From Paludibacteraceae bacterium (GTDB lineage: Bacteria; Bacteroidota; Bacteroidia; Bacteroidales; Paludibacteraceae), in contig JAKSNJ010000007.1 in NCBI GenBank assembly GCA_024399965.1, forward strand, positions 2,436 to 66,435: a stretch of DNA of 64,000 bases, given 5' to 3'. Shown here piece by piece: positions 1 through 51,835 of the stretch. Position numbers and translations under genes: made by a program. Each line of letters begins with the position of its first letter. Position 1 is the first letter of the stretch. The notes under the pieces were generated by a model, which had not been told where the DNA came from, made no database searches, and saw only the letters and a list, made by a program, of their open reading frames with translations.

Positions 1-929
1 TCCATGATGGCAAATACTTCGGCTTTCGTTTCAGCGCGAAGGAGGGCAATACGGGTTTGCTTGAAATCGTATAGTCCCTTGAAAACAGGGCTATTGGCAA
101 AGTGACGACGGGAGTGGACGATGCCTTTGCGCTCGTCGCCAATCCACTCAATCGAGCGCTCGACATGATCCTTGAGGATAGAGACGCACCACTGCATGGT
201 GCGAGGTTGCAAGTTGCAGGTTGCAGGTTGCAGGTAATTTTTAATGTCCTCGAATATCCATGGGCAGCCAAAGGTGGCACGTCCAATCATGATAGCATCA
301 ACACTGTAGCGGTCAAAACACTCTTTGGCCCGTTCGGGGGTGGTGACATCGCCGTTACCGATGATAGGAATATGCATACGTGGGTTGTTCTTGACCTCGC
401 CGATGAGGGTCCAATCGGCTTCGCCGGTGTACATCTGTGCGCGTGTACGTCCGTGAATGGCCAGTTCCTGAATACCACAATCCTGCAAGGCCTCTGCCAA
501 ATCGACGATGATGATTTCGTCACTATTCCAGCCCAAGCGCGTCTTGGCCGTGACGGGCGTATGCACAGCATTGACGACGGCGCGTGTGATGTCAAGCATA
601 CGAGGCACATCGCGCAGCAAGCCGGCTCCAGCACCCTTGCCGGCGACTTTTTTTACAGGACAGCCGAAGTTAATATCTATAAAATCCGGGCGCGCCTGCT
701 CCACTATACGCGCTGCCTCAGCCATCGACTCGGCATCGCGTCCATAGATCTGGATAGCCACCGGCCGCTCGGCATCGGAGATAGTCAGTTTGCGCGTAGC
801 AGCCGACACGTCGCGTACGAGTGCATCGGCATTGATGAACTCCGAATAGACGCGGTCAGCACCAAAGCGTTTGCACAAAAGTCGAAACGCGGGGTCGGTA
901 ACATCCTCCATGGGAGCGAGGTAGAGCAT
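1..929 (-). CDS. dus: tRNA-dihydrouridine synthase (Dus family). The 3' end runs off the left edge of the window.
   Basis: Absent from the ORF track because there is no in-window stop. Reading the reverse complement from the ATG at 929 gives MLYLAPMEDVTDPAFRLLCKRFGADRVYSEFINADAL..IQIYGRD..INFGCPVKKV..TAKTRLGW..IHGRTRAQ..IGNGD..IGRATFGCPWIF, a Dus TIM-barrel pattern. I checked the frame for stops over 780-929. The 102..1136 + ORF is its antisense shadow. Confidence 0.85.
   Translation of the reverse strand, partial: MLYLAPMEDVTDPAFRLLCKRFGADRVYSEFINADALVRDVSAATRKLTISDAERPVAIQIYGRDAESMAEAARIVEQARPDFIDINFGCPVKKVAGKGAGAGLLRDVPRMLDITRAVVNAVHTPVTAKTRLGWNSDEIIIVDLAEALQDCGIQELAIHGRTRAQMYTGEADWTLIGEVKNNPRMHIPIIGNGDVTTPERAKECFDRYSVDAIMIGRATFGCPWIFEDIKNYLQPATCNLQPRTMQWCVSILKDHVERSIEWIGDERKGIVHSRRHFANSPVFKGLYDFKQTRIALLRAETKAEVFAIM
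204..235 (-). repeat. Heptamer micro-array, about 4.5 units of AGGTTGC/AAGTTGC (GCAACCT on the coding strand), in frame inside dus
   Basis: Direct reading: aggttgc aagttgc aggttgc aggttgc aggt. It encodes YLQPATCNLQPRT in Dus. Confidence 0.9.
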
Positions 930-933
930 GGGA

Positions 934-982
934 ATTTGGAGTTTAGAGGTTGGAAGTTGGAGTTTGGAAGTTGGAAGTTAGA
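934..982 (-). repeat. Heptamer micro-array, 7 degenerate units (atttgga gtttaga ggttgga agttgga gtttgga agttgga agttaga)
   Basis: Direct reading. On the minus strand it forms the last codons of tadA (..SLTSNFQTPTSNL) and the leader immediately 5' of the dus ATG. Confidence 0.9.
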
Positions 983-1425
983 GAGGGGCGTTTGGAGGCG
1001 AAGAACGAGGTCATACGTTGGGCACAGTCGTCGGCGAGTATTCCCGATGAAACGGCGCATTTTGGATGGAGTGCCTGTGGGGCAAAAGAAGAAAAACCAC
1101 GTTTGGGGTCGGACGCACCATAGACCAATCGGCTAACCTGTGCCCACCCGATGGCACCGGCACACATGACACACGGTTCGACGGTCACGTAGAGGGTGCA
1201 ATCGGTGAGGTACTTACCGCCGAGTGTCTGCGTTGCAGCGGTGATGGCTTGCATCTCGGCATGGGCGGTAACGTCCTGCAGGGTTTCGGTAAGGTTATGT
1301 CCGCGACCGATGACTTGGTTACGGCAGACGATGACACACCCGACAGGTACTTCGTCCTGCAGAAGCGCTTTATCTGCCTCCGCAAGGGCTAAAGACATAT
1401 ATCGTTCGTCATCGGACATCGGCAT
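943..1425 (-). CDS. tadA: tRNA-specific adenosine deaminase (CDA-fold)
   Basis: HAEMQAI and TVEPCVMCAGA zinc-deaminase motifs. The ATG at 1425 shares one base with the malQ TGA. The track start at 1428 is a TTG. Confidence 0.9.
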   Translation of the reverse strand: MPMSDDERYMSLALAEADKALLQDEVPVGCVIVCRNQVIGRGHNLTETLQDVTAHAEMQAITAATQTLGGKYLTDCTLYVTVEPCVMCAGAIGWAQVSRLVYGASDPKRGFSSFAPQALHPKCAVSSGILADDCAQRMTSFFASKRPSLTSNFQTPTSNL

Positions 1426-4043
1426 CAACGTACAGAGGTCAGTTTTTGTATCTTCTCGTTCAGGGCTTTTTGCTTCATCAGGTCTTCCACCGAGATGTGC
1501 ATACGGTAGTTCCAGAAGTGACGCGGATTGCTGGGCAAGTTGATGCGCTCACCTTGCGCGTCTTTGAGTCGTACATCACCATCCACGGCGAGCCAGTCTT
1601 GCAGGGGCAGAATGACCCACATAGCAGGGCTATACATGTGTTGATTAACCACGAACTCGGCAATCTCGGGCGTCATCTGTTGAGGCGCTTCACCCCACCA
1701 GCCCATCTGCTCGTTGTAGAAACGTTGGGTGGTGTTGCGGTCCTCTTCCCACCAAGCACGCAACGGATTGGTGTCGTGTGTACCCGTGGTGCAGACGCTG
1801 AGATAAGGTGCATCGGCAGGGTGTGCAAACTTGATGGTGGGGTCCTTCGGCATACGCTGAATCTCCAAACTGAGTATCTGCAATTCGTGCATTACTTGCG
1901 GTACGCACTCAGGCACCATACCAAGGTCTTCGCCGCAGCAGAGCATACCGGTGGAGTTGATGAGCGTAGGAATCTTGCTCATGGCACTCTGACGCCAGAA
2001 CTCGGTATGACGGCGGAAGAAATAGTCGTTGTAGATACCCATGATGATATCTTTTTGGTCTTGGTACAGTTCGTTGAAACTGTGACTTTGGTAGATGCTG
2101 ATACGCGGATGCACAAGGTATTCATCTTTTTGGTCTCGCACGAAGAGCACTTCGCAATGCAGGTAGATGAGCCCGTTCATCAGGTTCAGGCGCTGCTCCT
2201 CGGGCAAGTTCTTACCCTCGCCCTGCTCAAAGTAGGTTTGTACCTTGAGTTGCGTATCAAACTCCGGACGGAAATAATAGACATAGCCATCGTTAGTGAG
2301 GAGGAAATGCTCCTTGGCATATTCGGTGTCAAAACCGAAGACATCGCCGAGGAAATTGCTACGGATATAGGGCTTGGTCATACGGTCCTCGTCCAACTTA
2401 ACGCCCATGTTCCACAGGTCTTGCATACTGTAAGGCAGGGCAGGACAGAAGTGTCCGCACAGTCCCCAGACGTCGCTCTTGCGCATCTGCCAAATACGGA
2501 ACATACCCAAGATATGGTCGATACGGTAGGCGTCAAAGTAGTCCGCCATCTTACTGAAGCGGCGTTTCCACCAGTCGTAGTTATCCTTGGCCATCACGTC
2601 CCAGTTGTAGGTGGGGAAACCCCAGTTCTGACCGCGTGCATCGAAATCATCAGGCGGCGCACCGGCACTGGCCTTGAGGTTAAACAGTTCGGGGTATTCG
2701 TACGCATCGACGCTGTCGGGGTTGATACCGATAGGTATATCTCCCTTCATCGCCACACCGATGGAATGGGCATACGCCACGGCGTCCGCCAACTGACGGT
2801 CGGCATGGAACTGCAGGAAGCAATAGAAGTCCTTGGGCTGCTTGTCGCGCTTGCTCATAAAGGCGGCGTAGGAATCCAACCAGTTCTTGCTCTTTTTGTA
2901 GAACGTTTTATATTCGGCAGAAGCCAAAACGGTATCTTTCTCGGCCTTGAAGATGGCTTTGAAATACTTCATCTTCTCATCATAAACGACCTGATAATCG
3001 GCAATGGGTTTGGCATTGAACTCCTGCTTGGTGGCCTCGTATTTCTTTTTCTGCGCAGGTGTGAGTTTGCCCATCTTCTCTATGTTAATATAGATAGGAT
3101 GCAGGGCAAAGACACTAACGGGGCTGTAGGGATAACTGTCGCGATTGGTGTGGGTGAGAGTGGTGTCGTTGATAGGCAGGGTCTGAATCATCTTCATGCC
3201 GGTCAGCACAGCCCAGTCTGCCATCTTCTTAAGGTCTTGGAACTCACCTATACCAAAGCCCTCGTCGGTGCGTAAACTGAAGACAGGTATCGCCACACCG
3301 GCTCCTTTCCAACGGGGTTGGGTACGACGGAAATTGCGGTCATTCTGCATGATAACCATACCCGACTGAACGCCCCACACGTGGCGGTTCTCGCCATATT
3401 CGATATCGACAATGCGGTTGGTCGCCTTGTCGTAGATGACATATTTATACTCAAAAATCTCATTGGCCTTGACGTGGATATTGGCACGCCAAACGGGGAA
3501 GTCGTGGTCGTCCATCACCACTTTTTTTGCCTCGTTCCAATTGCCTAATTCGGGTATATTACCCATGATAGCAACCCCTTGGCAGGGCAAAATCTGCGGC
3601 AAGTCGATACTGAAACGGACGTTGGACTTAGCCATGGCAGCAGCGGTTTTCAGTTGGCCACTCTGGGGCTCGCGATGGAACAGCGACTTGAGGAAAGCGG
3701 TGGTGTAGAAGGCCTTTTCGTAATCGACGGCTTGCCAATAGTCGTGGACGGACACCTGCTTATCGGCAGCGCGCAAGGCAATGGTACGGGGCTGACCTTC
3801 CTCGTAGATATACTGCCCATTCTCCAAACGAATGGCATAGTTGTAACAGAACTCGCCCCCCTTGGACTCGATGTCAGCAGTCCAGCAATCCTGCCCCTGA
3901 CAGGACATGTAATAAGGCGTTTGCTCGGTGAATACGGCTTTTTCTCCCTTTTGAATCAGACACAGTTGCTGACCAAAAACAGTACGATAATTAACTTGAA
4001 AATGTACGGTCATGGTATTACTCTTGTTTATTATAGTTGTCAT
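1425..4043 (-). CDS. malQ: 4-alpha-glucanotransferase (GH77 amylomaltase) with N-terminal starch-binding (CBM20-like) repeats
   Basis: 872-aa ORF. N-terminal segments TVHFQVNY.. and NVRFSIDLP..GNIPELGNWN resemble CBM20. The C-terminal part is GH77-like (GAPPDDFDARGQNWGFP, YRIDHILG, CGEDLG). An alternative ATG at 4013 would remove the overlap with the upstream gene. Confidence 0.85.
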   Translation of the reverse strand: MTTIINKSNTMTVHFQVNYRTVFGQQLCLIQKGEKAVFTEQTPYYMSCQGQDCWTADIESKGGEFCYNYAIRLENGQYIYEEGQPRTIALRAADKQVSVHDYWQAVDYEKAFYTTAFLKSLFHREPQSGQLKTAAAMAKSNVRFSIDLPQILPCQGVAIMGNIPELGNWNEAKKVVMDDHDFPVWRANIHVKANEIFEYKYVIYDKATNRIVDIEYGENRHVWGVQSGMVIMQNDRNFRRTQPRWKGAGVAIPVFSLRTDEGFGIGEFQDLKKMADWAVLTGMKMIQTLPINDTTLTHTNRDSYPYSPVSVFALHPIYINIEKMGKLTPAQKKKYEATKQEFNAKPIADYQVVYDEKMKYFKAIFKAEKDTVLASAEYKTFYKKSKNWLDSYAAFMSKRDKQPKDFYCFLQFHADRQLADAVAYAHSIGVAMKGDIPIGINPDSVDAYEYPELFNLKASAGAPPDDFDARGQNWGFPTYNWDVMAKDNYDWWKRRFSKMADYFDAYRIDHILGMFRIWQMRKSDVWGLCGHFCPALPYSMQDLWNMGVKLDEDRMTKPYIRSNFLGDVFGFDTEYAKEHFLLTNDGYVYYFRPEFDTQLKVQTYFEQGEGKNLPEEQRLNLMNGLIYLHCEVLFVRDQKDEYLVHPRISIYQSHSFNELYQDQKDIIMGIYNDYFFRRHTEFWRQSAMSKIPTLINSTGMLCCGEDLGMVPECVPQVMHELQILSLEIQRMPKDPTIKFAHPADAPYLSVCTTGTHDTNPLRAWWEEDRNTTQRFYNEQMGWWGEAPQQMTPEIAEFVVNQHMYSPAMWVILPLQDWLAVDGDVRLKDAQGERINLPSNPRHFWNYRMHISVEDLMKQKALNEKIQKLTSVR

Positions 4044-4803
4044 TCATTTTAGATGTTCCGGTTCCAAACCGGTTTTGTTTGCAAAAATACAAAATTTTTT
4101 CTAAACTTGCAAATAAAACAGGAATTATTGTATTAAAAATCCAAATTATGGACACGGCAATGGCGATGGCGGGCACGTTGGCGGTGTATTGTCCGAAAAT
4201 CAGTACCGCCCAGCCGCCTTTTATGGCTACATCTGCCACAGGCAGTGAGGGCATGATGCTCACGCACACGTAATAGACGGCTATGCTGCTAACGGCTTGC
4301 CACGGCGTGAGGGCAATGCCCACGAAGCGCAGCACCGCCCACAGTTGCACACCCCATACCAGATAGCGGACGACGGTCCAGAACAGGACGGGAAGCCATT
4401 TGCGCCAGTCACGCAACCATGCCTTGCCCTGCATTTTGAGTTGTTCACGGTCGATGTCCAGCCCTGCACTCACGAGGCGTGCCGGTATGTCTCCTGCCCG
4501 ATAGGGCGTGATGAACCCTGCCACCATACCTATCAGCACCTGATGCCAACTGTCCGAGAGCGTGATACTCTTCCACCCACGCAAGAGCCACTGCCACCGC
4601 ACGGTCTCAGCCCACAGTTGCACCGGAATGAGCAGCCCTGCCACCAGCAAGACCGTTCCTTCCCACGCACCTGCCTGACGGAAATACAGACCTATGTCGG
4701 CGTAGTGGCGATAGGTGGCAAGGCGGTAGATGAGGTAGCCAAAAGCCGCCACACTGACCAGCATACCGGCCCACTGAAGATATGTGAATTTACGGTGTGT
4801 CAC
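4018..4803 (-). CDS. Polytopic membrane protein, flippase-like / lysylphosphatidylglycerol-synthase TM-region family
   Basis: 261-aa hydrophobic ORF with several predicted TM helices. The family call is by general resemblance only. Confidence 0.5.
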   Translation of the reverse strand: MTHRKFTYLQWAGMLVSVAAFGYLIYRLATYRHYADIGLYFRQAGAWEGTVLLVAGLLIPVQLWAETVRWQWLLRGWKSITLSDSWHQVLIGMVAGFITPYRAGDIPARLVSAGLDIDREQLKMQGKAWLRDWRKWLPVLFWTVVRYLVWGVQLWAVLRFVGIALTPWQAVSSIAVYYVCVSIMPSLPVADVAIKGGWAVLIFGQYTANVPAIAIAVSIIWIFNTIIPVLFASLEKILYFCKQNRFGTGTSKMNDNYNKQE

Positions 4804-4844
4804 TATAACGCAAAAAGCAACCGCTGCGGTTGCTTTTCCAATTC

Positions 4845-5705
4845 TTAGCCAAGATACGTCTTTAAGATACGGCTCTTGGACGATGCTTTCAGTTTGCGAA
4901 TGGCTTTCTCCTTGATTTGGCGCACACGCTCCCGAGTGAGATGGAAATCATCGCCAATCTCTTCCAATGTCTTTTCCGGCATTCCTATACCGAAGAACTT
5001 ACGCAAGATGTCGGCTTCGCGTGCCGTGAGGGTGTTGAGTGCGCGGTCAATCTCGCGAGAAAGGGACTCGTTAATCAGTCCGCGGTCGGCATTGGGGCTG
5101 TCCTCGTTGGGCATGACATCAATCAGGCAGTTATCTTCGCCCTCCACAAAAGGTGCATCGACCGATACATGGCGGCCGGACATCTTGAGCGTGTCGGCAA
5201 TCTTGTCCACAGGCATGTCCAAAATCTCAGCCAGTTCCTCAGCAGACGGCTTACGCTCGTACTCCTGCTCAAAACGCTGGTAGGCCTTGTTAATCTTGTT
5301 CAACGAACCAACTTGGTTCAGGGGCAAACGCACGATACGTGACTGCTCTGCCAGCGCTTGTAAGATGGATTGACGAATCCACCACACAGCATAGGAAATA
5401 AACTTAAAACCCCTTGTTTCATCGAACTTTTCGGCGGCCTTGATAAGTCCCAGATTGCCCTCGTTAATCAGGTCGGGCAAACTTAAACCTTGGTTCTGAT
5501 ACTGCTTGGCAACCGAGACGACGAAGCGCAAGTTGGCACGAGTCAGACGCTCCAAAGCGGCACGGTCACCGTTGCGGATACGTCCTGCCAACTCAACCTC
5601 CTCCTCCACGGAGACCAAGTCCTCGCGACCTATCTCCTGAAGGTATTTATCCAAGGAGGCAGATTCACGATTGGTAATTGATTTAGTAATTTTGAGTTGT
5701 CTCAT
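4845..5705 (-). CDS. rpoD: Primary RNA polymerase sigma factor (sigma-70/SigA, short Bacteroidota type)
   Basis: Regions 2-4 are readable: [63 protein letters not shown]. Confidence 0.95.
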
Positions 5706-5723
5706 AATTATTCTTTTTTATTG

Positions 5724-5797
5724 TGATCCGGCCGGGATTCGAACCCGGGACCCACAGCTTAGAAGGCTGTTGCTCTATCCAACTGAGCTACCAGACC
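5724..5797 (-). tRNA. tRNA-Arg (anticodon UCU)
   Basis: The reverse complement GGTCTGG TA GCTC AGTTGGATA GAGC A ACAGC CTTCTAA GCTGT GGGTC CCGGG TTCGAAT CCCGG CCGGATC A folds as a 74-nt cloverleaf. The anticodon stem is perfect. GG is in the D loop and TTCGA in the T loop. CCA is not encoded. Confidence 0.92.
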
Positions 5798-5845
5798 TCG
5801 CGTCCGGCAAACGGACGCTTTTGTCAATCCCACTTTTTGGGGCTG

Positions 5846-5877
5846 CAAAGATACAAAAAAATTTTGAAATATACAAA
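5846..5877 (-). promoter_or_regulatory. Bacteroidota sigma-A promoter (TTTG-N20-TAtcTTTG) upstream of tRNA-Arg and rpoD
   Basis: Minus strand reads TTTGtatatttcaaaatttttttgTAtcTTTGcag. The -7 box is 5846..5853 and the -33 box is 5874..5877. Confidence 0.7.
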
Positions 5878-5883
5878 CTTTTT

Positions 5884-5918
5884 AAATGGAAAATGGAAAA
5901 ATGAGAATGGAGAATGGC
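5884..5918. repeat. Heptamer micro-array, 5 units (aaatgga aaatgga aaaatga gaatgga gaatggc)
   Basis: Direct reading. Intergenic. Confidence 0.85.
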
Positions 5919-5986
5919 TTTTTTTCTGAGTTATGACCGCAGGGCACAAGGCAGAACGCCGAAATATACAGAAAATACAGGTTTAG

Positions 5987-6137
5987 TCACCCCCTCATCG
6001 TTCGTGTATCTCGAGACGAACGATATACGAACGATGAACGAACGATGAACGGAGAGTGAATTTTGGGTGCAAATAGGTTCTTTAGCGGCATTGATAACCA
6101 TCGACCATGTTATGTTGATGTTATGTTGCAAACAGGG
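5987..6137 (+). repeat. Intergenic repeat family, copy A (internally deleted relative to copies B and C)
   Basis: It shares tcatcgttcgtNtatctcgagacNaacgatatacgaacgatgaacgaacgNtgaacggagagtgaattttgggtg and ..atgttatgttgatgttatgttgcaaacagg with 43480..43710 and, inverted, 53135..53360. Confidence 0.9.
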
Positions 6138-6260
6138 AGAATGAGCGCTTTACTGGTTTGCCAACTTCCGACCCTCAAGAAAAAAAAGACAAATGTGGAA
6201 CAGCAGGTATATTAAAGGTAAGCAACAGGCAATAGAAGTACTATGCTGCCAAAGTAGAGA

Positions 6261-31250: not shown

Positions 31251-31277
31251 ACTGTCAACTATCAACTATCAATTAAT
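31251..31277 (+). repeat. Heptamer micro-array, 4 units (actgtca actatca actatca attaata), abutting the start codon at 31278
   Basis: Direct reading. Confidence 0.85.
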
Positions 31278-33362: not shown

Positions 33363-33404
33363 GGTTAAAGTTTAGATTATTAAGGTTAGAGTTAGGTTTA
33401 ATGG
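33363..33404 (-). repeat. Heptamer-periodic leader, about 6 degenerate units (ggttaaa gtttaga ttattaa ggttaga gttaggt ttaatgg), directly upstream of the ferritin ATG
   Basis: Direct reading. G-poor on the coding (minus) strand. Confidence 0.7.
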
Positions 33405-33770: not shown

Positions 33771-33851
33771 AATCCTATACTCATCGTATACTTATTGCAG
33801 TTGGCGATTGACAATCCACAATGCACGATGAGAACTGACGATTTGTAAGAT

Positions 33852-34514: not shown

Positions 34515-34589
34515 TTTATTATTTGGCAGAAGGCATACTCCGTTTATTCAATATTCACATATATACAACAAAAAACGTGAGGCCTGTTT

Positions 34590-34740
34590 AGCTTCAATCT
34601 GGGATTTCGAGGATTCTGGACTACCTTCTTTTACCAAATATCTACAGAACAAGACTCACGCAAAGCGTGAGCAAAGGCCTTGTTCTTGGTAAAAGAATTT
34701 TTGAAAGTGTCCAGTTTTCGAAAATCCCAAGTTCTTAGCT
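34590..34740. repeat. Long imperfect palindrome (about 150 bp) centred on ctcacgc-aaa-gcgtgag
   Basis: Arms pair as gaacaag/cttgttc, cttttaccaa/ttggtaaaag, ctggac/gtccag and gggatttcga../..ttttcgaaaatccc, with bulges. Confidence 0.75.
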
Positions 34741-34810
34741 GCTTACTTTTTACAATGTCTTTGCAGGGTCATCCCCTGCGGGAGGGGTTAATTTTCTTTT
34801 TTCCTTTATA

Positions 34811-35680: not shown

Positions 35681-35724
35681 ATTGTTCCGTTAGAAGTAAC
35701 AACTGAGCATACATTTCTACGTTG

Positions 35725-35756
35725 CAAAGGTACAAAGAATTTTTGGAATAAACAAG
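35725..35756 (-). promoter_or_regulatory. Promoter of the RhuM-like gene (-7 TAccTTTG, -33 CTTG, 20-nt spacer)
   Basis: Minus strand reads cttgtttattccaaaaattctttgTAccTTTGcaac. The spacer is nearly identical to those of the topA and 61179..61210 promoters. Confidence 0.55.
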
Positions 35757-35794
35757 AAAATGTTATCTTTTTCAGAAAAAACGTATACATTTCA

Positions 35795-35873
35795 TCATTT
35801 AGCGACAAAGTGGCAGTTAAACACATCATTTTACAAAAGGATTTGCATATTCCAAAAATTCTTTGTATCTTTG
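35795..35873 (+). promoter_or_regulatory. topA promoter (TTTG 35842..35845, TAtcTTTG 35866..35873) with a conserved upstream module of about 50 bp
   Basis: The module catttagcgacaaagtggcagttaaacacatcattttacaaaagga precedes the -33 box. Near-identical modules are at 43717..43767 and, on the minus strand, 53078..53125. Confidence 0.7.
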
Positions 35874-35921
35874 CAGCCCGAAACGAGAAAACAGAGATAA
35901 GATAACAGATAATAAGGAGTA

Positions 35922-38225
35922 ATGAGTAAGAATTTAGTCATTGTTGAGTCACCGGAGAAAGCAAAAACAATCGAGAAATTTTTAGGGAAAGACTATCGCG
36001 TTCTTTCTTCTAAAGGCCATATACGAGATATAGAGGGTATAGGAAAACGTAGTATCGGAATTGATTTTGATAACGATTATACCCCGAACTATGTCATTGA
36101 CCCGACCAAAGAATCCCTGCTGGCTACGATGCGCAGCGAAGCTGCCAAGGCCGATACGGTTTGGCTGGCAAGTGATGAGGACCGTGAGGGTGAGGCCATC
36201 GCTTGGCACCTGCAAGAAGTGCTGCAATTAGCCCCCGAACGGACACGACGCATCGTTTTTCACGAGATTACCAAAGACGCTATTCAGGACGCTATCCAGC
36301 ATCCCCGTCAGGTGGATTATAACCTTGTTCAAGCCCAACAGGCACGCCGCGTGTTGGACCGTATCGTGGGCTTTGAGTTGTCACCTATCCTGTGGCGCAA
36401 GATTGTAACAGGACTCAGTGCCGGACGTGTACAGTCTGTGGCTGTACGCCTGATTGTGGAGCGCGAACGCGAGATAGAAGAGTTTAAGGAACAGGCCCAA
36501 TACCGCGTTGTGGCGGACTTTATGGGCACAAGCACCGAAGGCCAACCTGCCGTGCTACATACCGAACTCAATCACCGTTTCACGACCAAAGACGAGGTCA
36601 TCGATTTCCTTGACCTCTGCCAACAGACCACTTTCCGTTTGGGCAGTACACAGACCAAACCCGTACATCGTGCACCGGCTCCTCCGTTCACCACATCTTC
36701 CTTACAGCAGGAGGCAGCACGTAAACTCAAATTCACCGTCAGCAAGACCATGCGCCTCGCACAGTCCTTATATGAGGCAGGTTTGATTACCTATATGCGT
36801 ACGGACTCCGTACACCTGAGCACACTCGCATTGGGCACTGCCAAGACGGAGATTCTTGCCAACTACGGAGAGCAGTACCACAAGTTGCGCCAGTACAAGA
36901 CTTCCAGCAAGGGGGCACAGGAGGCGCATGAGGCCATTCGTCCCACCTACCTGTCCAACCACACTGCGGGACGTACTGCAGACGAGAAACGCCTGTATGA
37001 ACTGATTTGGAAACGTACCATCGCCTGCCAGATGAGCGATGCCGAGATAGAAGCCACACGCATTGAGGTGGTAAGCGACGATACCCCGTATGCCTTTGTC
37101 GCTCAAGGAGAAACGGTACTCTTTGACGGTTTTACCAAAGTGTATATCAAGTCGGTAGATGACGAGAACACCGAGCGCACGGCTATCTTGCCTAAGATGG
37201 CTTCTGGACAGACACTTACCTGCGACACCTACGTCGGGCAACAGACCTTCACCAAGGCACCTTTCCGTTACAACGAGGCCTCGCTGGTGGACAAAATGGA
37301 GGAATTGGGCATCGGTCGTCCTTCTACCTACGCCACTACGATTGAGACGATTCAGTCGCGCAAGTACGTGGCACGCGGCAACGCCGACGGACACCCCCAC
37401 AAGGTACATATCATCTCCGTCAAAAAAGGACGTTATTCCGAGAAATACGAAACAGAGATAGTCGGGCAGGAGTCCGGCAAACTGTTGCCCACCGACCTCG
37501 GACGGCTGTCCAACGATTTCTTAGTGCAGAACTTCCCCGAGATACTGTCATACGACTTCACGGCACGCGAGGAAACGAACTTTGATAAGATAGCCGCCGG
37601 TAAGACGAACTGGGTCAAGGTGGTGGACACGTTCTATCACCGGTTCCATCCGCTGATTGAGCACGTGCCCGGAGGCAAGATGGATAGTCGGCTTTTGGGT
37701 ACAGACCCCAAGACGGGCGCGCCTGTCTTTGCCAAGATAAGCAAGGTTGGACCATGTATCCAAATTGGCAACGCCGACCAAGGCAAACCTAAGTTCGCCA
37801 GCATGAAAGAGGGACAGTCGATTTACACCATCACCCTCAAGGAGGCCCTCGAACTGTTTGCTGAGGTAAAGCACAAAGCCCTCTTCCTCTTGGACGGAGA
37901 CGAGGTGCAGTACGGTGTGGGTAAATACGGACCGTATGTCAAGTACCGTGGCAACTTTATCTCTGTTTCGGAAACTGACGAACAGCAACTCACGCCTGAG
38001 CGCGTGCGCGATATTTTACAAAAGGAGAAAGCCAAGAATCAGCCCCTGCACACTTTCGGTGACATCACTGTGCATCAAGGGCGGTACGGATTGTATCTCA
38101 AGAAAGGAAAAGAGAATTACCCGCTGCCCAAATCTGTTCAATTGGACGACTTGACCGAGACCTATTGTCAAGAATTGATAACCAATCATAAACCCTCTAA
38201 AAAATATGCTCGTAAACATTCTTAA
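35922..38225 (+). CDS. topA: DNA topoisomerase I
   Basis: Toprim ([25 protein letters not shown]). Catalytic region ITYMRTDS. C-terminal basic repeats. Confidence 0.95.
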
Positions 38226-38538
38226 ATCAAAGATCCATCGCGTAACCGTTACGGAGGCGAATTTGGACTACGTAGGTTCCATCACCATTGACGAGGATTG
38301 GATGGAGCAAAGTGGTATATTAGAGGGGGAGCGTGTGCAGGTAGTGGACGTTACCAACGGTGCGCGGCTGGAGACTTATGTCATTCCCGGTAAGCGCGGT
38401 AGCCACTGCATCTGTATGAACGGTGCTGCAGCGCATCTGATTAAGGTGGGGGACACCGTCATCATCATGGCGTATGCGTGGATGACGCCGGAAGAGCAAA
38501 GCACCTTCAAGCCCACCATCGTATTCCCTAAACTCTAA
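38206..38538 (+). CDS. panD: Aspartate 1-decarboxylase
   Basis: [17 protein letters not shown] self-processing site. 110 aa. It overlaps the topA 3' end by 20 nt. Confidence 0.92.
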
Positions 38539-38565
38539 AACCTACTACCTACAACCTGCTCTCTA
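38524..38565 (+). repeat. Heptamer-periodic spacer, about 6 units (ttcccta aactcta aaaccta ctaccta caacctg ctctcta), spanning the panD stop to the tgt start
   Basis: Direct reading. G-poor on the coding strand. Confidence 0.8.
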
Positions 38566-42304: not shown

Positions 42305-42346
42305 AATTCTCAATTCTCAATTCTCCATTCTCAATTCTCAATTCAC
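42305..42346. repeat. Heptamer micro-array, 6 units (aattctc x3, cattctc, aattctc, aattcac), filling the ansA-stop to pepD-start spacer
   Basis: Direct reading. The ansA TGA (42338..42340) lies inside the array. Confidence 0.92.
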
Positions 42347-43366
42347 CACTGTCATTTCTCCGCACAACGGTGTGCAAATCAGCCGCTTCACTTCCTCCGT
42401 GTCGCTGTATTCGCCCATCAGCACCATCATCTTGGTCAGCAGCGCTTCGGTGGTGATGTCATAACCGCTCAGCACTCCGGCTTTCATCAGGTTCAGACTG
42501 ACCTGATACAGCCCCATAGCCACTGTCCCTGTGTGACATTGTGTCTTGTTCACGATGACCAAACCGCGCTGTACGGCGTCCCGCAACGCCTCATACAGCC
42601 ACTCGTACGAGGGGGCATTGCCCGAGCCAAAGGTCTCTAATACCACGCCGCGCAGACCTTCTGTCTTCAAGATGGCTTGCACCACAGGTGGGGTGATGCC
42701 CGGAAATAGTTTCAGTACCGCCACATTGCGGTCTATTTTCAGGTGCGTCTGCAACGGCATTTGCGTCGTTTCCCGATGTATCAGATTCTCACGGTACGTG
42801 ATGTGTACGCCTACTTTGGCTAAGGTGGGGTAGTTGTATGAATCAAATGCCTCAAACTGCTCGCTGTTCATCTTGGTGGTGCGGTTACCGCGGAAGAGCC
42901 GTCCCTCGAAATATACGCACACTTCCGGCACCATTGCCTCGCCTTGCTCGTTCTTGGCTGCGGCTATCTCAATGGCTGTCAGCAGGTTCTCGCGTGCGTC
43001 GGAACGTAGTACGCCTATCGGCAATTGACTACCGGTCAGCACCACCGGCTTGCGCAGGTTGGTGAGCATAAAACTGAGTGCCGAAGCCGAATAGGACATG
43101 GTATCGGTGCCGTGCAGGATAACAAAACCGTCGTAGCGGTCGTAGTTGTCGGCAACTGTCTGCGCCATCTTGACCCAGTGGTCGGGGTTCATATCCGATG
43201 AGTCGATTAGTGGTTGGAAGGGTATCATATCTACTTCCACGGACGACGATACCAATTCCGGCACCATTGCCTTAAACACCTCTTTGGAAGCCGGACACAA
43301 CGCCCCGGTCTTGTGTTCTTGCACCATCGAAATGGTTCCACCCGTTAATATCAGCAGTACACGCAT
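42338..43366 (-). CDS. ansA: L-asparaginase, type I
   Basis: MRVLLILTGGTISM catalytic Thr motif and HGTDTM. Start set at the ATG at 43366. Confidence 0.9.
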   Translation of the reverse strand: MRVLLILTGGTISMVQEHKTGALCPASKEVFKAMVPELVSSSVEVDMIPFQPLIDSSDMNPDHWVKMAQTVADNYDRYDGFVILHGTDTMSYSASALSFMLTNLRKPVVLTGSQLPIGVLRSDARENLLTAIEIAAAKNEQGEAMVPEVCVYFEGRLFRGNRTTKMNSEQFEAFDSYNYPTLAKVGVHITYRENLIHRETTQMPLQTHLKIDRNVAVLKLFPGITPPVVQAILKTEGLRGVVLETFGSGNAPSYEWLYEALRDAVQRGLVIVNKTQCHTGTVAMGLYQVSLNLMKAGVLSGYDITTEALLTKMMVLMGEYSDTEEVKRLICTPLCGEMTVVN

Positions 43367-43452: not shown

Positions 43453-43487
43453 GTGCATTGTGCATTGTCCACTGCCAACCACCACCC
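43453..43487 (+). repeat. Heptamer micro-array (gtgcatt gtgcatt gtccact gccaacc accaccc)
   Basis: Direct reading. The first about 20 nt recur at 49661..49688 inside a CDS. Confidence 0.8.
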
Positions 43488-43710
43488 CTCTTATCGTTCG
43501 TCTATCTCGAGACCAACGATATACGAACGATGAACGAACGGTGAACGGAGAGTGAATTTTGGGTGTTTTTTGGGGGCAAAAATTTTGGTTTTGGCAGTGA
43601 TTGAGTGGTCGCGATGTGGTCACGAAATACACAGGCGCTTTACTCGCCCCTTTTTTTAGCCGTATTGCCACCCACCGACTATGTTATGTTGATGTTATGT
43701 TGCAAACAGG
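43480..43710 (+). repeat. Intergenic repeat family, copy B (full length)
   Basis: Near-identical to the reverse complement of 53135..53360 over about 230 bp. It shares both ends with copy A. Confidence 0.92.
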
Positions 43711-43716
43711 TAAACA

Positions 43717-43795
43717 TCGTTCAGCCACAAAGTGGCGGTTAAACGCATCATTTTACAGAAAGATTTGCATATATCAAAAAAAATTTGTAACTTTG
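43717..43795 (+). promoter_or_regulatory. Conserved upstream module plus promoter (TTTG 43764..43767, TAacTTTG 43788..43795) of the PCMD-like gene
   Basis: cgttcagccacaaagtggcggttaaacgcatcattttacagaaagaTTTGcatatatcaaaaaaaatttgTAacTTTGcgc. Confidence 0.7.
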
Positions 43796-47158: not shown

Positions 47159-49141
47159 ATGAAAAAATGCTTATTGGGCTTGTTATGCTTGCCGATGTTA
47201 ATATCTTGTCAAAAACAACAGTTTAGTTACCACGTGGATAGATTTTACGATTTAGAGTTATTGCGCTACGAAGTGCCCGGTTGGGACCAATTGAGCGTGC
47301 AGCAAAAGACATTGGTGTACTACCTGTCCGAAGCCGCCTTGCAGGGGCGCGATATATTGTACGACCAAAACGGCCGTTACAACCTCCGTATCCGTCGGAC
47401 GCTGGAGAACTTATACACGAACTACCCCTATGACAAAAACACGGAGGAGTTTGCCCTGTTTGAGAAATACCTCAAGCGCGTGTGGTTCAGCAACGGTATT
47501 CACCACCACTACAGCGAAGATAAGTTCCTGCCCGAATTTACGCAGGAGTGGTTTGTAGAGGCATGTGCCCAAGCCGGTGTGGAATACGATGCAGCCATCT
47601 TGCCCGTTATGTTTGACCCTAACGTGATGGCTAAGCGCACTAACCAAGCTGCCGGTGTGGACTTAGTGGCTTGTTCTGCCGGCAATTACTACGGCGAGGG
47701 CGTGACCCAAGCCGAAGCTGAGGCATGGTATGAACAACATAAAGACACTACCGACGAACCACTGTGGATAGGGCTGAATAGCCAATTATGCAAGGATTCC
47801 ACTGGCGCTATTTACGAGCGCACCTATCGCATAGGTGGCTTATACGGCGAGGCGTTAGAGAAAATCAATTTCTGGTTAGAGAAGGCCTTGGAGGTGGCTG
47901 AAAACGATACCCAACGGGAAGTGATTGCCCACCTGATTGAATACAACCGTTCCGGTAATCTGCGCAGTTTCAATGCCTACTGCATCGCTTGGGTCAAGGA
48001 CCTTGAGAGCCGTGTGGACTTTGTGAACGGATTTACAGAGACCTATGCCGACCCCTTAGGCATCACGGGTACGTGGGAGTCGATTGTCAACTTCAAGGAC
48101 TTGGAGGCGACGCACCGTACCGAAATCATTTCCGCCAACGCACAGTGGTTTGAGGACCACTCCACCACCGACCCTATCTATAAGAAAGAGGAGGTAAAGG
48201 GTGTTAGTGCCAAGGTGATTACGGCTGCTATCTTGGCAGGTGACTGCTATCCGGCTACGCCTATCGGTATCAACCTGCCCAACGCCAACTGGATTCGCAA
48301 GTCGTATGGCAGCAAATCCGTTACGATAGACAACCTCGTTAAAGCATATAACGAGTCCGCCAAGGGCAACGGTTTCAACGAGGAGTTTATGATAGATGAC
48401 GAGATACGTGCGTTATATGACCAATATGGTGCCGTTTGCGGTGACTTGCATACCGACTTGCACGAGTGCGTCGGTCACGGTTCCGGTAAACTCATGCCGG
48501 GTGTGAGCAAGGATGCACTGAAGGAACATGCCTCCACCATAGAGGAAACACGTGCCGACCTGTTTGCCCTCTATTTCGTGGCAGACAGTAAATTGGTTGA
48601 GTTGGGGTTATTGCCGAACAAAGAGGCCTACAAGGCAGCTTATTACCAGCAGATGATGAATGGCTTGATGACGCAGTTGGTGCGTATCGAACCGGGTAAG
48701 GACATCGAGGAGGCACACATGCGCAATCGTCAGTTGATAGCCGCTTGGGTATTTGACCACTGTGAGAAGAACGAGATGGAAATCATTGAGCGCGATGGCA
48801 AACACTACTTGCAGATTAACGACTACGAGGGTGTTCGCCGTGTAGTAGGCGATATGTTAGCAGAGATACAGCGTATTACCTCCGAAGGCGACTATGCCGC
48901 GGCGAAGACATTGGTGGAGACGTATGCCGTTAAGGTGGATCAAGACTTGCATAAAGAGATTTTGGCGCGCTATGCTAAACTGAATTTGGCACCGTATAAG
49001 GGTTTTGTTAATCCTGTTTATACACCTGTTATGAACAAGAACGGTGTGATTACCGACGTCAAAATAGATTATACCGAAGGGTATGTAGAGCAGCACTTGC
49101 GCTATAGTCGAGACTACTCCAATCTGCCCGATGTGAATTGA
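47159..49141 (+). CDS. Dipeptidyl-peptidase III family (M49) lipoprotein
   Basis: HECVGHGSG zinc motif and downstream EE.RADL. Lipobox LISC. Confidence 0.8.
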   Translation: MKKCLLGLLCLPMLISCQKQQFSYHVDRFYDLELLRYEVPGWDQLSVQQKTLVYYLSEAALQGRDILYDQNGRYNLRIRRTLENLYTNYPYDKNTEEFALFEKYLKRVWFSNGIHHHYSEDKFLPEFTQEWFVEACAQAGVEYDAAILPVMFDPNVMAKRTNQAAGVDLVACSAGNYYGEGVTQAEAEAWYEQHKDTTDEPLWIGLNSQLCKDSTGAIYERTYRIGGLYGEALEKINFWLEKALEVAENDTQREVIAHLIEYNRSGNLRSFNAYCIAWVKDLESRVDFVNGFTETYADPLGITGTWESIVNFKDLEATHRTEIISANAQWFEDHSTTDPIYKKEEVKGVSAKVITAAILAGDCYPATPIGINLPNANWIRKSYGSKSVTIDNLVKAYNESAKGNGFNEEFMIDDEIRALYDQYGAVCGDLHTDLHECVGHGSGKLMPGVSKDALKEHASTIEETRADLFALYFVADSKLVELGLLPNKEAYKAAYYQQMMNGLMTQLVRIEPGKDIEEAHMRNRQLIAAWVFDHCEKNEMEIIERDGKHYLQINDYEGVRRVVGDMLAEIQRITSEGDYAAAKTLVETYAVKVDQDLHKEILARYAKLNLAPYKGFVNPVYTPVMNKNGVITDVKIDYTEGYVEQHLRYSRDYSNLPDVN

Positions 49142-50913
49142 TGGCTATTGACCTGCCAATATCAAAAAGTATAGCGAACCGTCTATTGATGTTGCAAGCT
49201 ATTCACGGAGACCCCCTCTTGGAGGTCTCTTGTGATATGCCCGACGATGTCCGCCTCATTCATGACGTATTAAGCCACCTATCACCTACCTGCTACAACC
49301 TACCACCTACAACCTATCACCTCTCCAATTGTGGCACGGCTATGCGTTTCCTGACGGCTTATTGTGCGCAGTTAGAGGGCTGTGAAGTCGTCTTGGACGG
49401 AGATGAACGTATGCACCACCGGCCGATAGGGCAATTGGTAGATGCTCTCGTGCGCGCAGGGGCGCATATAGAATATATAGGTGAGCAGGGCTATCCGCCT
49501 TTGCGTATTATGGGGCGTGCGTTGCCTCGTACTGCGATTACATTGCTGCACCCGCAATCGTCACAATTTGTAAGCGCATTGCTCTTGATGGGCTTTCCTG
49601 TAACGACCGACTGCCGTTCACCGTATATCGCTATGACCCAACACATCATAGCCAACTACCGTGCATTGTGCATTGCCAACCGTCCATTGGAGAAGGATTG
49701 GTCAGCTGCGGCTTTTTGGTATGAGTACGTGGCGTTGCATGGTGGCGAATTGGAGTTACCGGGGTTGAGTGCGCATAGTGTACAGGGAGATAAGGTAGTG
49801 GCAGACCTGTTCCGTCCGTTGGGGGTGGCAACCACCTACACCGATACAGGTATTCGAATACGCCGAACGGGTAATGTGAATGGCTGCCCAAGAGTGGTGG
49901 ATTTTACGGACTGTCCGGACCTTTACCCGGCAGTGGCTATTACTTATAGGCAGTTGGCTAAACCGTTGATAGCACGTGGCACAGCGTCCCTGCGTATTAA
50001 GGAAAGCGACCGCATCAAGGCCGTTCAGCAGCAAACGACCTACCACGACCACCGTATAGCCATGGCCTTGCTGGCTGCCGACCTGCCTTGCGACGATAAG
50101 GAATGTGTTTCCAAGTCCTACCCTCGTTTTGTAGAACAACTGTCAACTGTCAACTCTCAATTCTCAACTGTCATTCCGCGCCGAGGAATTAACGACGAGG
50201 GCAAGGGTAAGAAATATGCCTTGCATAAACTCATTTCTGCTGCCACTACCGACTATGTGTGGCTGATGGACGATGATGTTCTCCCAGCCCCCATTCTCCA
50301 TTCTCCATTCTCCATTCTCCATTTTCCTGCCGACCTATATATTTTGCCCCTGAAGATGGTGGAGGGACGGTCTTTATTGGAGCGTTTGCAGGTGGCTGAA
50401 TATGCAGCCATTCAGGAGGTGACAATGCGTACTGCGAAGCGGGGCAAGGCAGTGATGTGCAGTGGGGCGAACTTAATTGTGCGGAGAGAAAGGTGGTTGG
50501 AGAGTTATGCTGATTTGCATACGGACATACCCAGTGGCGATGATATGTTTTTGTTGGAGTCGTTTCGCCGTCGCGGTTTGCAGATAAGTGTGATTGACCG
50601 CCCCGAATATACGGCTACGGTTACTGCTATACCTTCGTGGCGTGCGTTTTTTAGGCAACGTATGCGTTGGGCAGGCAAGGCGCCTCACTATACGGACCGT
50701 TATATCATTCGTTACGGGGCTGTTGTGCTGGGGGCTAATATGCTGCAACTGCTTTGTCCGCCGGTGTTGCTGGTGAAGTTCCCGTATGAATATCGTCTCA
50801 TCAAAAAAAGAGACCCGCAGGTCTCTTTTTGGATTGCTCTGTTGTTAGAGGTGTTATACCCCTATTACATGTTATTAGTCCTCTTGGGAGGGCTCTTCCG
50901 TCGCAGCTGGTAA
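49138..50913 (+). CDS. aroA: Single ORF joining a 3-phosphoshikimate 1-carboxyvinyltransferase-like (AroA) region (about aa 1-335) to the C-terminal two-thirds of a GT2 glycosyltransferase
   Basis: AroA-like: SKSIANRLL, NCGTAMRFL, RMHHRPIG.LVDAL, SSQFVSALLL, SPYIAMT, LRIKESDR, DHRIAMA, SKSYP.F. GT2-like: GKGKKYAL...., LMDDDV, QRMRWAGK, and TM helices. Heptamer arrays lie at 49275, 49661, 50138 (the junction) and 50292. Confidence 0.7.
   Translation: MMAIDLPISKSIANRLLMLQAIHGDPLLEVSCDMPDDVRLIHDVLSHLSPTCYNLPPTTYHLSNCGTAMRFLTAYCAQLEGCEVVLDGDERMHHRPIGQLVDALVRAGAHIEYIGEQGYPPLRIMGRALPRTAITLLHPQSSQFVSALLLMGFPVTTDCRSPYIAMTQHIIANYRALCIANRPLEKDWSAAAFWYEYVALHGGELELPGLSAHSVQGDKVVADLFRPLGVATTYTDTGIRIRRTGNVNGCPRVVDFTDCPDLYPAVAITYRQLAKPLIARGTASLRIKESDRIKAVQQQTTYHDHRIAMALLAADLPCDDKECVSKSYPRFVEQLSTVNSQFSTVIPRRGINDEGKGKKYALHKLISAATTDYVWLMDDDVLPAPILHSPFSILHFPADLYILPLKMVEGRSLLERLQVAEYAAIQEVTMRTAKRGKAVMCSGANLIVRRERWLESYADLHTDIPSGDDMFLLESFRRRGLQISVIDRPEYTATVTAIPSWRAFFRQRMRWAGKAPHYTDRYIIRYGAVVLGANMLQLLCPPVLLVKFPYEYRLIKKRDPQVSFWIALLLEVLYPYYMLLVLLGGLFRRSW
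49275..49323 (+). repeat. Heptamer micro-array, 7 units (ccaccta tcaccta cctgcta caaccta ccaccta caaccta tcacctc), in frame in the AroA-like region
   Basis: Direct reading. It encodes ..HLSPTCYNLPPTTYHLS.. immediately before the NCGTAMR motif. Confidence 0.9.
49661..49688 (+). repeat. Heptamer micro-array (gtgcatt gtgcatt gccaacc gtccatt), in frame in the AroA-like region
   Basis: Direct reading. It shares ccgtgcattgtgcattg with the intergenic array at 43451..43468. Confidence 0.8.
50138..50172 (+). repeat. Heptamer micro-array, 5 units (aactgtc aactgtc aactctc aattctc aactgtc), at the AroA/GT2 junction
   Basis: Direct reading. It encodes EQLSTVNSQFSTV. Confidence 0.9.
50292..50326 (+). repeat. 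Heptamer micro-array, 5 units (cattctc x4, cattttc), in frame in the GT2-like region
   Basis: Direct reading. It encodes PILHSPFSILHFP. Confidence 0.9.
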
Positions 50914-51219: not shown

Positions 51220-51260
51220 AATTGTATGTTGTTTTATTATTTATCGTACTAAACGGACTG

Positions 51261-51292
51261 CAAAGGTACTATTTTTTTTTGATATACGCAAA
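51261..51292 (-). promoter_or_regulatory. Promoter of secG (TTTG-N20-TAccTTTG)
   Basis: Minus strand reads TTTGcgtatatcaaaaaaaaatagTAccTTTGcag. Confidence 0.7.
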
Positions 51293-51307
51293 TTTTTCCG
51301 CATAAAA

Positions 51308-51811
51308 TTACCATTTTGCAACGGTATCGTTGTAAATACTCTCTGCTATTTCGGTTATCATAGTGGCACATAATTCATCTTGCACGTCCGTGAGCAACTG
51401 ATTGCTGTCGAATGTTTGGTAGGCGGTGTAGGTCTTTTCAAAACTCTCGTCGGGGTTGATGTTGTTGGTAAAGCGCACACGCACGGTGATGGTTAGTTTG
51501 GTCTCGGCTGCATAACTGTCGGCAGCAATAGACATATTCGCCAAGTCGTAGCCCGTAATCTCACCCTCCAACTCCAATTGTCCGCCTTTGCGCAGTATCT
51601 CGAGGCGTGTTTGGCGGGCAAAGAGGTCACGAATACCCTCACTTAAGTCTTGACTGAGTGGGGCATAAACGAGGGCCGCCATATTGGGAAAGTCGGCAAT
51701 AGATATGTTGTGCGTTGTGGCGTAGTCGATACTGGCACCGTTGAATTTATAACTGATGGCACAACTGCTCAGCACCATTCCCAATATACCTATAATGACT
51801 ATCTTCTTCAT
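51308..51811 (-). CDS. LptE-like LPS-assembly lipoprotein
   Basis: Lipobox VLSSC. 167 aa. The conserved Bacteroidota context is sigma-54 activator / LptE-like / SecG. Confidence 0.6.
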   Translation of the reverse strand: MKKIVIIGILGMVLSSCAISYKFNGASIDYATTHNISIADFPNMAALVYAPLSQDLSEGIRDLFARQTRLEILRKGGQLELEGEITGYDLANMSIAADSYAAETKLTITVRVRFTNNINPDESFEKTYTAYQTFDSNQLLTDVQDELCATMITEIAESIYNDTVAKW

Positions 51812-51814
51812 CTT

Positions 51815-51835
51815 CTCTAAACTCTAAACTGCAGG
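51815..51835. repeat. Short heptamer array (ctctaaa ctctaaa ctgcagg) upstream of the LptE-like start
   Basis: Direct reading. Only about 3 units. Confidence 0.55.

Follow-up and report, generated by a model that had tools for sequence, protein, structure and literature searches.

The stretch examined here comprises 64,000 nucleotides (nt) of contig JAKSNJ010000007.1 (positions 2,436 to 66,435 of the forward strand) in the genome assembly GCA_024399965.1 of a Paludibacteraceae bacterium; the whole stretch is called the window, and coordinates are counted from its first letter. Its gene content is that of an ordinary housekeeping chromosome, including genes for glycogen metabolism, ClpB, RpoD, isoleucyl-tRNA synthetase (IleRS), thiamine synthesis, topoisomerase, Tgt, LptF/G, LptE and GldD, and a SusD fragment. 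Only two RNA matches were revealed by Rfam and ARAGORN, both tRNAs. An earlier note, made from the letters alone, had placed the DNA near Prevotella and other Bacteroidales; the order was right, but the DNA belongs to a metagenome-assembled genome of the family Paludibacteraceae. Between and within the genes lie short tandem arrays of 7-nt units, which are the subject of this report. We found that these repeats are genuine and occur much more often than chance would allow, and that they are a genome-wide trait of Paludibacteraceae, formed by AT-rich tandem heptamers of many different sequences.

Arrays in the window were detected with Tandem Repeats Finder (TRF) at a score of at least 30, and with our own self-match scan, which applies one score threshold to all periods and was controlled by dinucleotide-preserving shuffles (n = 20). 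Thirteen of the 14 period-7 sites cited in the earlier note were recovered by TRF; the exception at 33363 is too degenerate and gave no array by TRF (score 30) or by the self-match scan (score 8). The note had proposed shuffled controls, and in the window period-7 arrays stood far above the dinucleotide-shuffled expectation: nine were observed at score ≥10 against 0.0 in the shuffles, and at score ≥8 there were 14 hits at 13 sites against 1.33 ± 1.14. Periods 14 and 21 of the window are multiples of 7, and the sole other enriched period was 11, its source being an unrelated three-copy dispersed element. A 50-kb piece of E. coli K-12, taken as control, yielded no array of period 7. The arrays at 43453, 49661 and 51815 have 2.1–2.3 copies each and are individually within chance; those at 43453 and 49661 have an identical 20-mer in common, CTACCGTGCATTGTGCATTG, including five non-repeat bases.

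The family sample came from a species scan with one genome per species, in which relatives of the fusion gene at 49141–50913 of the window were searched. It consists of 80 loci from 80 related species (1.46 Mb), from Paludibacteraceae and unclassified Bacteroidales metagenome-assembled genomes (MAGs) of horse, ruminant, pig and human-associated samples, and its genes were called by codon-usage score. With the window added, it holds 322 arrays in about 1.5 Mb; L-numbers below denote loci of related species. In the period spectrum of the 80 loci (score ≥10), period 7 gave 315 arrays, followed by periods 14 (202), 11 (94), 9 and 15 (63 each), 8 (52) and 6 (28), the rest having at most 19; periods 2–6 ranged from 1 to 28 arrays each and periods 8–11 from 13 to 94. 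Units of 8, 9 and 11 nt form arrays too. About 10 of the 80 loci were without any period-7 array. The 322 arrays are built from 142 distinct consensus units with a GC content of 31%, typically in 3–5 copies and at most in 21. Chance, or faulty assembly of the MAGs, could be considered for the three cited arrays of about two copies, which are individually within chance, but there are 14 observed against 1.3 expected, and arrays stand at orthologous sites in independent MAGs of different studies, in frame within conserved genes. The shuffle controls and the period spectrum over 80 species refute this explanation, and we give it a negligible probability.

The positional bias claimed by the earlier note is real and holds across the family (80 species). 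Intergenic DNA makes up 11% of the sequence and contains 56% of the arrays, with 44% inside coding sequence. Array density was 1.65 per kb in co-directional spacers, 0.37 in divergent and 0.35 in convergent intergenic DNA, and 0.107 in coding sequence, co-directional spacers being about 15 times denser in arrays than coding sequence. Of all co-directional spacers 19% contain an array, and the share rises to 31% at spacer lengths of 31–60 nt. Inside genes they occupy loops and linkers, at sites recurring between species, and in proteins only stop-free, in-frame arrays persist.

The arrays had also been described as G-poor on one strand, mostly the sense strand of the neighbouring genes. The G-poverty stands for the window arrays, but the sense-strand rule holds only inside coding sequence, where the G-poor strand is sense in 106 cases and antisense in 36, versus 74 and 79 in co-directional spacers. 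Units with both G and C numbered 128 of 322 against 154 expected, and most of the one-sided lack of G simply follows from the AT-richness of the units. Among units drawn from intergenic arrays, freedom from stop codons is 2.25 times as frequent on the G-poor strand as on its complement, and the bias in coding sequence (2.94:1 observed, 2.25:1 predicted) is mostly due to AT-rich composition together with a stop-codon filter. The lack of a preferred orientation in spacers makes a strand-specific RNA motif unlikely; orientation in co-directional spacers gave no evidence for a strand-specific RNA function. The arrays fold weakly, with a mean minimum free energy (MFE) of -1.9 kcal/mol and half of them at 0. 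Selection for lack of RNA structure was considered and rejected, since the arrays fold slightly more stably than shuffles of matched composition (-1.94 vs -1.20 kcal/mol). The suggestion that they had been co-opted as unstructured spacers is therefore without positive support, the arrays being neither less structured than shuffles nor biased in orientation in spacers.

The arrays and other features of the window are listed in Table 1. The window arrays are placed at gene boundaries or in frame inside coding sequences, as the earlier note had it.

Table 1. Heptanucleotide arrays and other features of the window
Position	Strand	Repeat or feature	Setting	Encoded peptide	Source
204–235	-	(GCAACCT) x4.6	in frame in Dus gene (tRNA-dihydrouridine synthase)	QPATCNLQP	TRF, translation
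931–983	-	(CCAACTT-type) x7, degenerate			TRF
5884–5917	-	(CCATTCT/CCATTTT) x4.9	intergenic, upstream of tRNA-Arg (5723–5797, minus strand)		TRF
21378–21404	+	(CAATTAT/CAACTAT) x3.9	in frame in IleRS C-terminal domain	CQLSTINYQL	TRF
31251–31272	+	(CAACTAT) x3.1	5' leader		TRF
33363–33403	-	very degenerate A/T/C-rich stretch	upstream of ferritin start (33359)		not confirmed as array
33799–33826	-	third GTGCATT cassette copy (GTGCATTGTGGATTGTCAATCGCCAAC)	intergenic, downstream of gene 33852–34514 (minus strand)		new here
38535–38557	+	(CTACAAC) x3.3			TRF
42305–42360	+	(AATTCTC) x5.7 + variant units	antisense to two minus-strand genes		TRF score 73
43453–43480	+	GTGCATT cassette (GTGCATTGTGCATTGTCCACTGCCAAC)	divergent intergenic region		TRF
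49275–49322	+	(CMACCTA) x6.9	in frame, EPSP-synthase-like domain of fusion gene 49141–50913	SPTCYNLPPTTYHL	TRF
49661–49688	+	GTGCATT cassette	in frame in fusion gene 49141–50913	RALCIANRP	TRF
50137–50173	+	(CAACTGT) x5.3	in frame, linker of EPSP-synthase-like and GT2 domains	QLSTVNSQFSTV	TRF
50291–50327	+	(CCATTCT) x5.3, four perfect units	in frame, GT2-domain loop	ILHSPFSILHF	TRF score 67
51815–51830	+	(CTCTAAA) x2.3	antisense to two minus-strand genes		TRF
~5985–6160	+	dispersed repeat, copy 1	intergenic
~43480–43730	+	dispersed repeat, copy 2	intergenic
~53110–53360	-	dispersed repeat, copy 3	intergenic
21765–25240	+	146-aa and 1012-aa open reading frames	downstream of IleRS
34000–36000		low-GC patch, 37% GC	RhuM-family gene 34811–35680 (minus strand)
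53470–55373		low-GC patch, 41% GC	N6/N4 DNA methylase 53470–54297 and unannotated 354-aa open reading frame

Two of the arrays within genes lie in essential housekeeping genes. The array at 204 is the linker joining the TIM barrel and the helical domain of Dus, and aligns to the linker DTGEL-LPP of E. coli DusB with a 1-residue length difference; the array at 21378 is a loop when compared with a solved IleRS structure, again with a length difference of only one residue. The array at 931 spans the last 13 codons of a TadA-like deaminase gene (PSLTSNFQTPTSNL*), the stop codon and the whole 13-nt spacer to the Dus ATG (929). Several others fill spacers in a similar way: the array at 38535 occupies most of the 30-nt spacer from the panD (aspartate decarboxylase) stop at 38538 to the tgt (tRNA-guanine transglycosylase) start at 38569, and the one at 42305 overlaps the last 7 asparaginase codons and the stop and takes up the larger part of the 47-nt spacer ahead of the M20 peptidase gene, which starts at 42290. 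The array at 51815 is located within a 46-nt spacer directly upstream of the LptE start (51811), and the equivalent spacer of L004 contains a (TCTTAAC) x6 array. The array at 31251 stops 5 nt short of a start codon, the ATG at 31278 of a gene for an acetyl-CoA hydrolase/transferase, and has a GC-rich hairpin on its 5' side. The cassette at 43453 adjoins one copy of the separate dispersed element of about 250 nt. Between the array at 5884 and tRNA-Arg (5798–5880, minus strand) we noticed by eye the motif TTTG...TAnnTTTG, which we take to be promoter-like after the Bacteroidetes consensus; given this putative motif, the array would be placed where an upstream promoter element would be.

Four arrays are located in the fusion gene at 49141–50913 (plus strand), whose product of 590 aa is composed of a shortened EPSP-synthase-like domain and a GT2 membrane glycosyltransferase without the usual N-terminal ~60 residues. 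The fusion is standard across Paludibacteraceae, with 275 related loci in the species scan, all in Paludibacteraceae-like genomes. In the AlphaFold (AF2) model, with a mean pLDDT (the predicted local confidence) of 79.8, all four arrays fall in coil or linker segments with confidence dips: the sites at 49275 and 49661 are coil, the latter with a pLDDT dip, that at 50137 is a linker, and that at 50291 is the lowest-confidence segment (block mean pLDDT 51; residues 388–390 below 50). An alignment of 26 homologs of the fusion protein (56–84% identity) revealed that length varies at five or six hot spots, the site at 49275 among them, each at a fixed position in a loop. The peptides there, for instance YHLSPVTCHL, LQPATCNL and SPSRHLAISPSRHLAI, are of the kind that heptamers give on translation, and the arrays in coding sequence lie in these columns of varying length. 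At site 50291 the closest homolog (P0002) has CHLQPTTCNL at the same length. At site 49275, L002 carries a perfect TCACCTA x6, and L003, the closest reference relative, has no array at sites 49275 and 50291. The units at site 50137 change from species to species, being CAACTGT x5 in the window, CAGATGT x7 in L003, GTGCATY/GTCAACC in L004 and L007, and AATGCAC x3 in L002.

Comparison of orthologous sites in species pairs at 89–95% nucleotide identity revealed identical arrays, indels, presence or absence, and replacement of units at the same length. The indels included a clean one of 21 nt (3 units) beside gaps that measured 9, 15, 16 and 24 nt, and those in coding sequence between species were in frame (e.g. 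21 nt). In IleRS the peptide STxNYQL is conserved across relatives, and the DNA of L085 is still a CAATTAT/CAACTAT/CAACTGT array; judging from this conservation the IleRS array is old, and its persistence as a DNA array suggests continuing homogenisation. Splitting of genes by arrays was considered where the IleRS C-terminal search gave only partial proteins, and was rejected for the one case examined, L085, which proved to be a scaffold gap of N. Some lineages are array-poor: L043 and L053 have 0 arrays in ~20 kb versus 6–9 in their relatives L025 and L037 (78–79% nucleotide identity), and L005, L006, L011, L012, L014, L020 and L072 are likewise without period-7 arrays in ~20 kb. At orthologous positions the array-poor relatives contain decayed remnants or nothing. 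The arrays turn over fast and persist almost only where they are tolerated, namely in co-directional spacers, gene 3' ends, surface loops and inter-domain linkers.

The related units that the earlier note had seen at unlinked loci are borne out by local identities of 20–34 nt between window arrays. The arrays at 21378 and 31251 are identical at 22 of 23 nt, those at 5884 and 50291 have 30 of 34 nt in common, and the 3' part of the array at 42305 resembles the array at 50137 (31/39 nt). The composite GTGCATT-GTGCATT-GTCAAYC-GYCAAC occurs at three non-orthologous sites of the window, at 33799–33826 (minus strand; 24 of 28 nt identical to the copy at 43453), 43453 and 49661, and also twice within a single gene, in L004 as well as in L007. 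Slippage at one locus cannot generate such cassettes, which copying between loci can yield. Across the family sample, 752 pairs of unlinked arrays (>500 nt apart) of the same genome were compared; the unit was identical in 37 of them, whereas pairs from different genomes predict 7.4, an excess of about 5-fold. The share of pairs with an identical unit was 8.2% at 0.5–3 kb, 3.9% at 3–8 kb and 3.1% beyond 8 kb, versus 1.2% for GC-matched pairs from different genomes (p about 1e-12); 28 of the identical-unit pairs are direct and 9 inverted. Several array pairs are also alike in the order of variant units or in non-repeat flanks. The largest component of the unit network (≤1 mismatch) had 130 units versus 124 in a composition-matched null, so that the network speaks neither for nor against a single family of units. 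A scan of the Joint Genome Institute (JGI) metagenome collection for the GTGCATT cassette pattern gave one hit, which says nothing on mobility.

Local spread was noticed in several relatives. L032 and L066 (~1100–5900) contain one unit at many nearby sites in both orientations (ACCAAGT/AAGGGAC), L044 and L046 have ATGTACA at many nearby sites in both orientations, and an identical composite of ~33 nt was found in L066 at two sites 780 nt apart.

We consider it probable that the arrays are heptanucleotide simple-sequence repeats which slippage maintains and templated copying of short patches carries to other sites, which selection confines to spacers and loops, and which are mostly neutral. Replication slippage would grow, shrink and homogenise the arrays, and new sites would be seeded, and old arrays overwritten, by short-patch templated copying from arrays of the same genome, likely through template switching or gene conversion on the microhomology of the repeats, favoured by proximity. 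A pre-formed array might enter an essential gene in one in-frame step, by insertion or conversion; for the period-7 arrays in IleRS and Dus such a one-step origin is suggested because the addition of 7 nt would shift the reading frame. The majority of arrays would be neutral or nearly so, with the setting of spacer and loop length as their effect. Slippage and gene conversion between arrays were among the candidates of the earlier note, and they fit the indels, presence or absence, unit replacement, shared units and shared cassettes; the comparative data support its view that a period-7 repeat process is at work.

Several points weigh against this explanation. The 4.5-fold excess of arrays in co-directional spacers over other intergenic DNA goes beyond simple tolerance and may reflect a function or a transcription-linked origin. 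Slippage and template switching were inferred, and the evidence of turnover comes from pairs of close species. The explanation gives no reason for the period of 7, for which polymerase contact has been put forward as a hypothesis in the literature. Genome-specific selection for particular heptamers could be an alternative source of the sharing of units within genomes, and the array-poor sister lineages suggest a heritable determinant of array maintenance.

A role in mRNA is an unlikely alternative, in which the arrays are elements of polycistronic mRNA, either weakly structured spacers or ribosome landing pads in the Shine-Dalgarno-poor Bacteroidetes, or sites of RNA-binding regulators, with the arrays in coding sequence as by-products. 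It would account for a density in co-directional spacers 4.5 times that of divergent and convergent DNA, the presence in 19% of these spacers and 31% at 31–60 nt, the many arrays ending 0–10 nt from a start codon, and the weak folding (mean MFE -1.9 kcal/mol, half at 0), and a like proposal has been published for the TAACTGA repeats of Beggiatoaceae and for Flexibacter; but in co-directional spacers the arrays show no orientation bias (74 sense, 79 antisense), there are 142 different units, the same spacers are array-less or have a replaced array in close relatives, folding is not weaker than in composition-matched shuffles (-1.94 vs -1.20 kcal/mol), and 44% of the arrays are inside coding sequence. 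Phase variation, with arrays as contingency loci in which slippage in unit number switches genes or tunes promoters, seems very improbable. Such loci are marked by long perfect tracts within or before genes for surface structures or virulence, with out-of-frame variants in populations. The hosts here include essential housekeeping genes (IleRS, Dus) and ordinary metabolic operons beside the fusion gene, most arrays are short (3–5 units) and degenerate, between-species indels in coding sequence are in frame, and no enrichment near surface-structure genes was apparent, without a formal test; some close-species indels are whole-unit (21 nt = 3 units), however, and the fusion gene with its glycosyltransferase has near-perfect tracts of 4–6 units (50291; site 1 in L002), as phase variation would have it.

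It is also quite improbable that a dedicated system is responsible, that is, tiny non-autonomous mobile cassettes comparable to the small dispersed repeats of cyanobacteria, or a reverse transcriptase, nuclease or recombinase that makes or inserts heptamer arrays. Visual inspection of array flanks gave no conserved termini, target-site duplications or flank motif, no systematic flank analysis having been made; unit diversity is high within single genomes (9 different units in the window), sharing declines with distance as local template switching predicts, there is no candidate gene within the window, and the GTGCATT cassette pattern had one hit only in the JGI collection. These points stand against units and composite cassettes that are common to unlinked sites of the same genome in both orientations (28 direct, 9 inverted), a cassette present twice within a single gene of L004 and of L007, array-rich versus array-poor sister lineages, and the one-step in-frame origin that period-7 arrays in essential genes would seem to need. 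A more novel reading is possible although we lean against it: in Paludibacteraceae, ready-made heptamer cassettes may be copied from locus to locus by an active mechanism that is inherited, and which would place them in operon spacers and, in frame, in the loops of essential enzymes. Array-rich and array-poor sisters would then differ by a specific determinant, for example a variant polymerase or repair protein, or an enzyme dedicated to the task. If this were true, the cassettes would in effect be tiny mobile elements without transposase, and Paludibacteraceae would be a tractable system for the long-open origin of bacterial heptamer repeats.

Other features of the window were revealed in the course of the analysis. 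The dispersed repeat has three intergenic copies of ~170–250 nt; copies 2 and 3 hardly differ along the greater part of the element, ~80 nt are deleted from the interior of copy 1, and the three-way alignment averages 71% column identity. Within the element are an inverted repeat, TCATCGTTCG...CGAACGATGA, and two tandems of 11 nt, ACGAACGATGA and ATGTTATGTTG; the period-11 signal of the window is due to this element. No Rfam match at gathering score was found for it; it could be a miniature inverted-repeat transposable element (MITE), a leader or a small RNA. The two low-GC patches are likely acquired islands, and the methylase and the 354-aa open reading frame are probably a restriction-modification pair. 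The 146-aa and 1012-aa open reading frames had no Pfam match; the equivalent gene in L085, of 944 aa, has only weak AsmA/DUF748 matches.

The earlier note held that no known feature class explains the arrays, which is wrong: long simple-sequence repeats dominated by heptanucleotides had already been described (Mrázek, Guo & Shah 2007, as reported in PMC4679880 and PMC4692102), and heptamer direct repeats beside start codons are published for Bacteroidetes including Paludibacter propionicigenes (PMC4679880). As these two papers report it, the class has units of 5–11 nt with heptanucleotides the commonest in prokaryotes, and the groups they name as rich in such repeats are Burkholderia, Cyanobacteria, Actinobacteria and Xanthomonas, with Paludibacteraceae not named among them. 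Judged from that account, our arrays are alike in being short and head-to-tail, in having 7 nt as by far the commonest unit with 8, 9 and 11 nt enriched too, and in their lineage-specific distribution, their intergenic concentration and slippage as the proposed origin; they differ in that 44% are in coding sequence though 7 is not a multiple of 3, and in the evidence that arrays are copied from one locus to another. Of four features by which we compared them with the class, excess over chance, 7-nt dominance and intergenic concentration are found here; for the fourth, whole-unit change in copy number between close relatives, the species pairs gave a mixed picture, with the 21-nt indel beside gaps of other lengths and replacement of whole arrays.

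TAACTGA heptamer direct repeats are known from Beggiatoaceae, from Cyanobacteria and from five Bacteroidetes, Paludibacter propionicigenes among them (MacGregor 2015, PMC4679880). They resemble the present arrays in that 2–6 heptamers lie within a few nt of start codons or overlap upstream stops, with occasional in-frame copies at the protein periphery, in differing between strains by 7-nt steps, and in their occurrence in the same bacterial family; they differ in having one dominant forward unit, whereas there are 142 units without spacer orientation bias here. Membership was rejected: TAACTGA is the consensus of 1 of 322 arrays (L078), there is no TAACTGA tandem in the window, and no forward-orientation rule was found (74:79). 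The STRR heptanucleotide repeats of cyanobacteria, which Mazel et al. are said to have described in 1990, reportedly consist of a few specific units (CCCCAGT, TTGGTCA, CAACAGT) at high copy. Heptamer repeats of GGGGAYT and GGGAATC are reported from Nostoc and Xanthomonas (PMC4692102). All of these are intergenic tandem heptamers, variable in length and sequence between close relatives at the same sites and without an assigned function, as in our arrays, but they use few specific units, some of them G-rich and G-quadruplex-capable, in contrast to the AT-rich units here. None of the STRR, GGGAATC or GGGGAYT units forms an array in the 1.5 Mb, so that membership of these groups was rejected; the STRR units gave no consensus unit and no exact dimer there.

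The small dispersed repeats of cyanobacteria, attributed to Elhai et al. in 2008, are said to be ~21–27 nt long and to occupy many unrelated sites, with insertion shown against empty sites. The GTGCATT cassette is the local example of such likeness, since both are ~20–30 nt, lack a transposase and occur at unrelated sites in one genome; the cassettes here are built of heptamer units, have 3 copies in 64 kb, and their mobility is inferred. CRISPR repeats, repetitive extragenic palindromes (REP/BIME) and MITEs were rejected for the arrays, whose units are contiguous without spacers, which fold weakly and which have no Rfam match. CRISPR repeats are set apart by unique spacers, and REP and MITE elements have palindromic units or terminal inverted repeats.

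For annotation, the arrays lengthen protein loops and C-termini and blur start-codon calls in Paludibacteraceae genomes. Hundreds of Paludibacteraceae MAGs from herbivore guts exist, with arrays at orthologous positions across them, and a search for the genetic determinant is feasible given the array-rich and array-poor sister lineages. Compared with the published accounts of heptamer repeats, so far as the papers cited above present them, the new elements are the family-wide scale in gut Paludibacteraceae, the recurrent in-frame colonisation of fixed enzyme loops, the simple explanation of the strand bias, and the statistical evidence of copying between loci.

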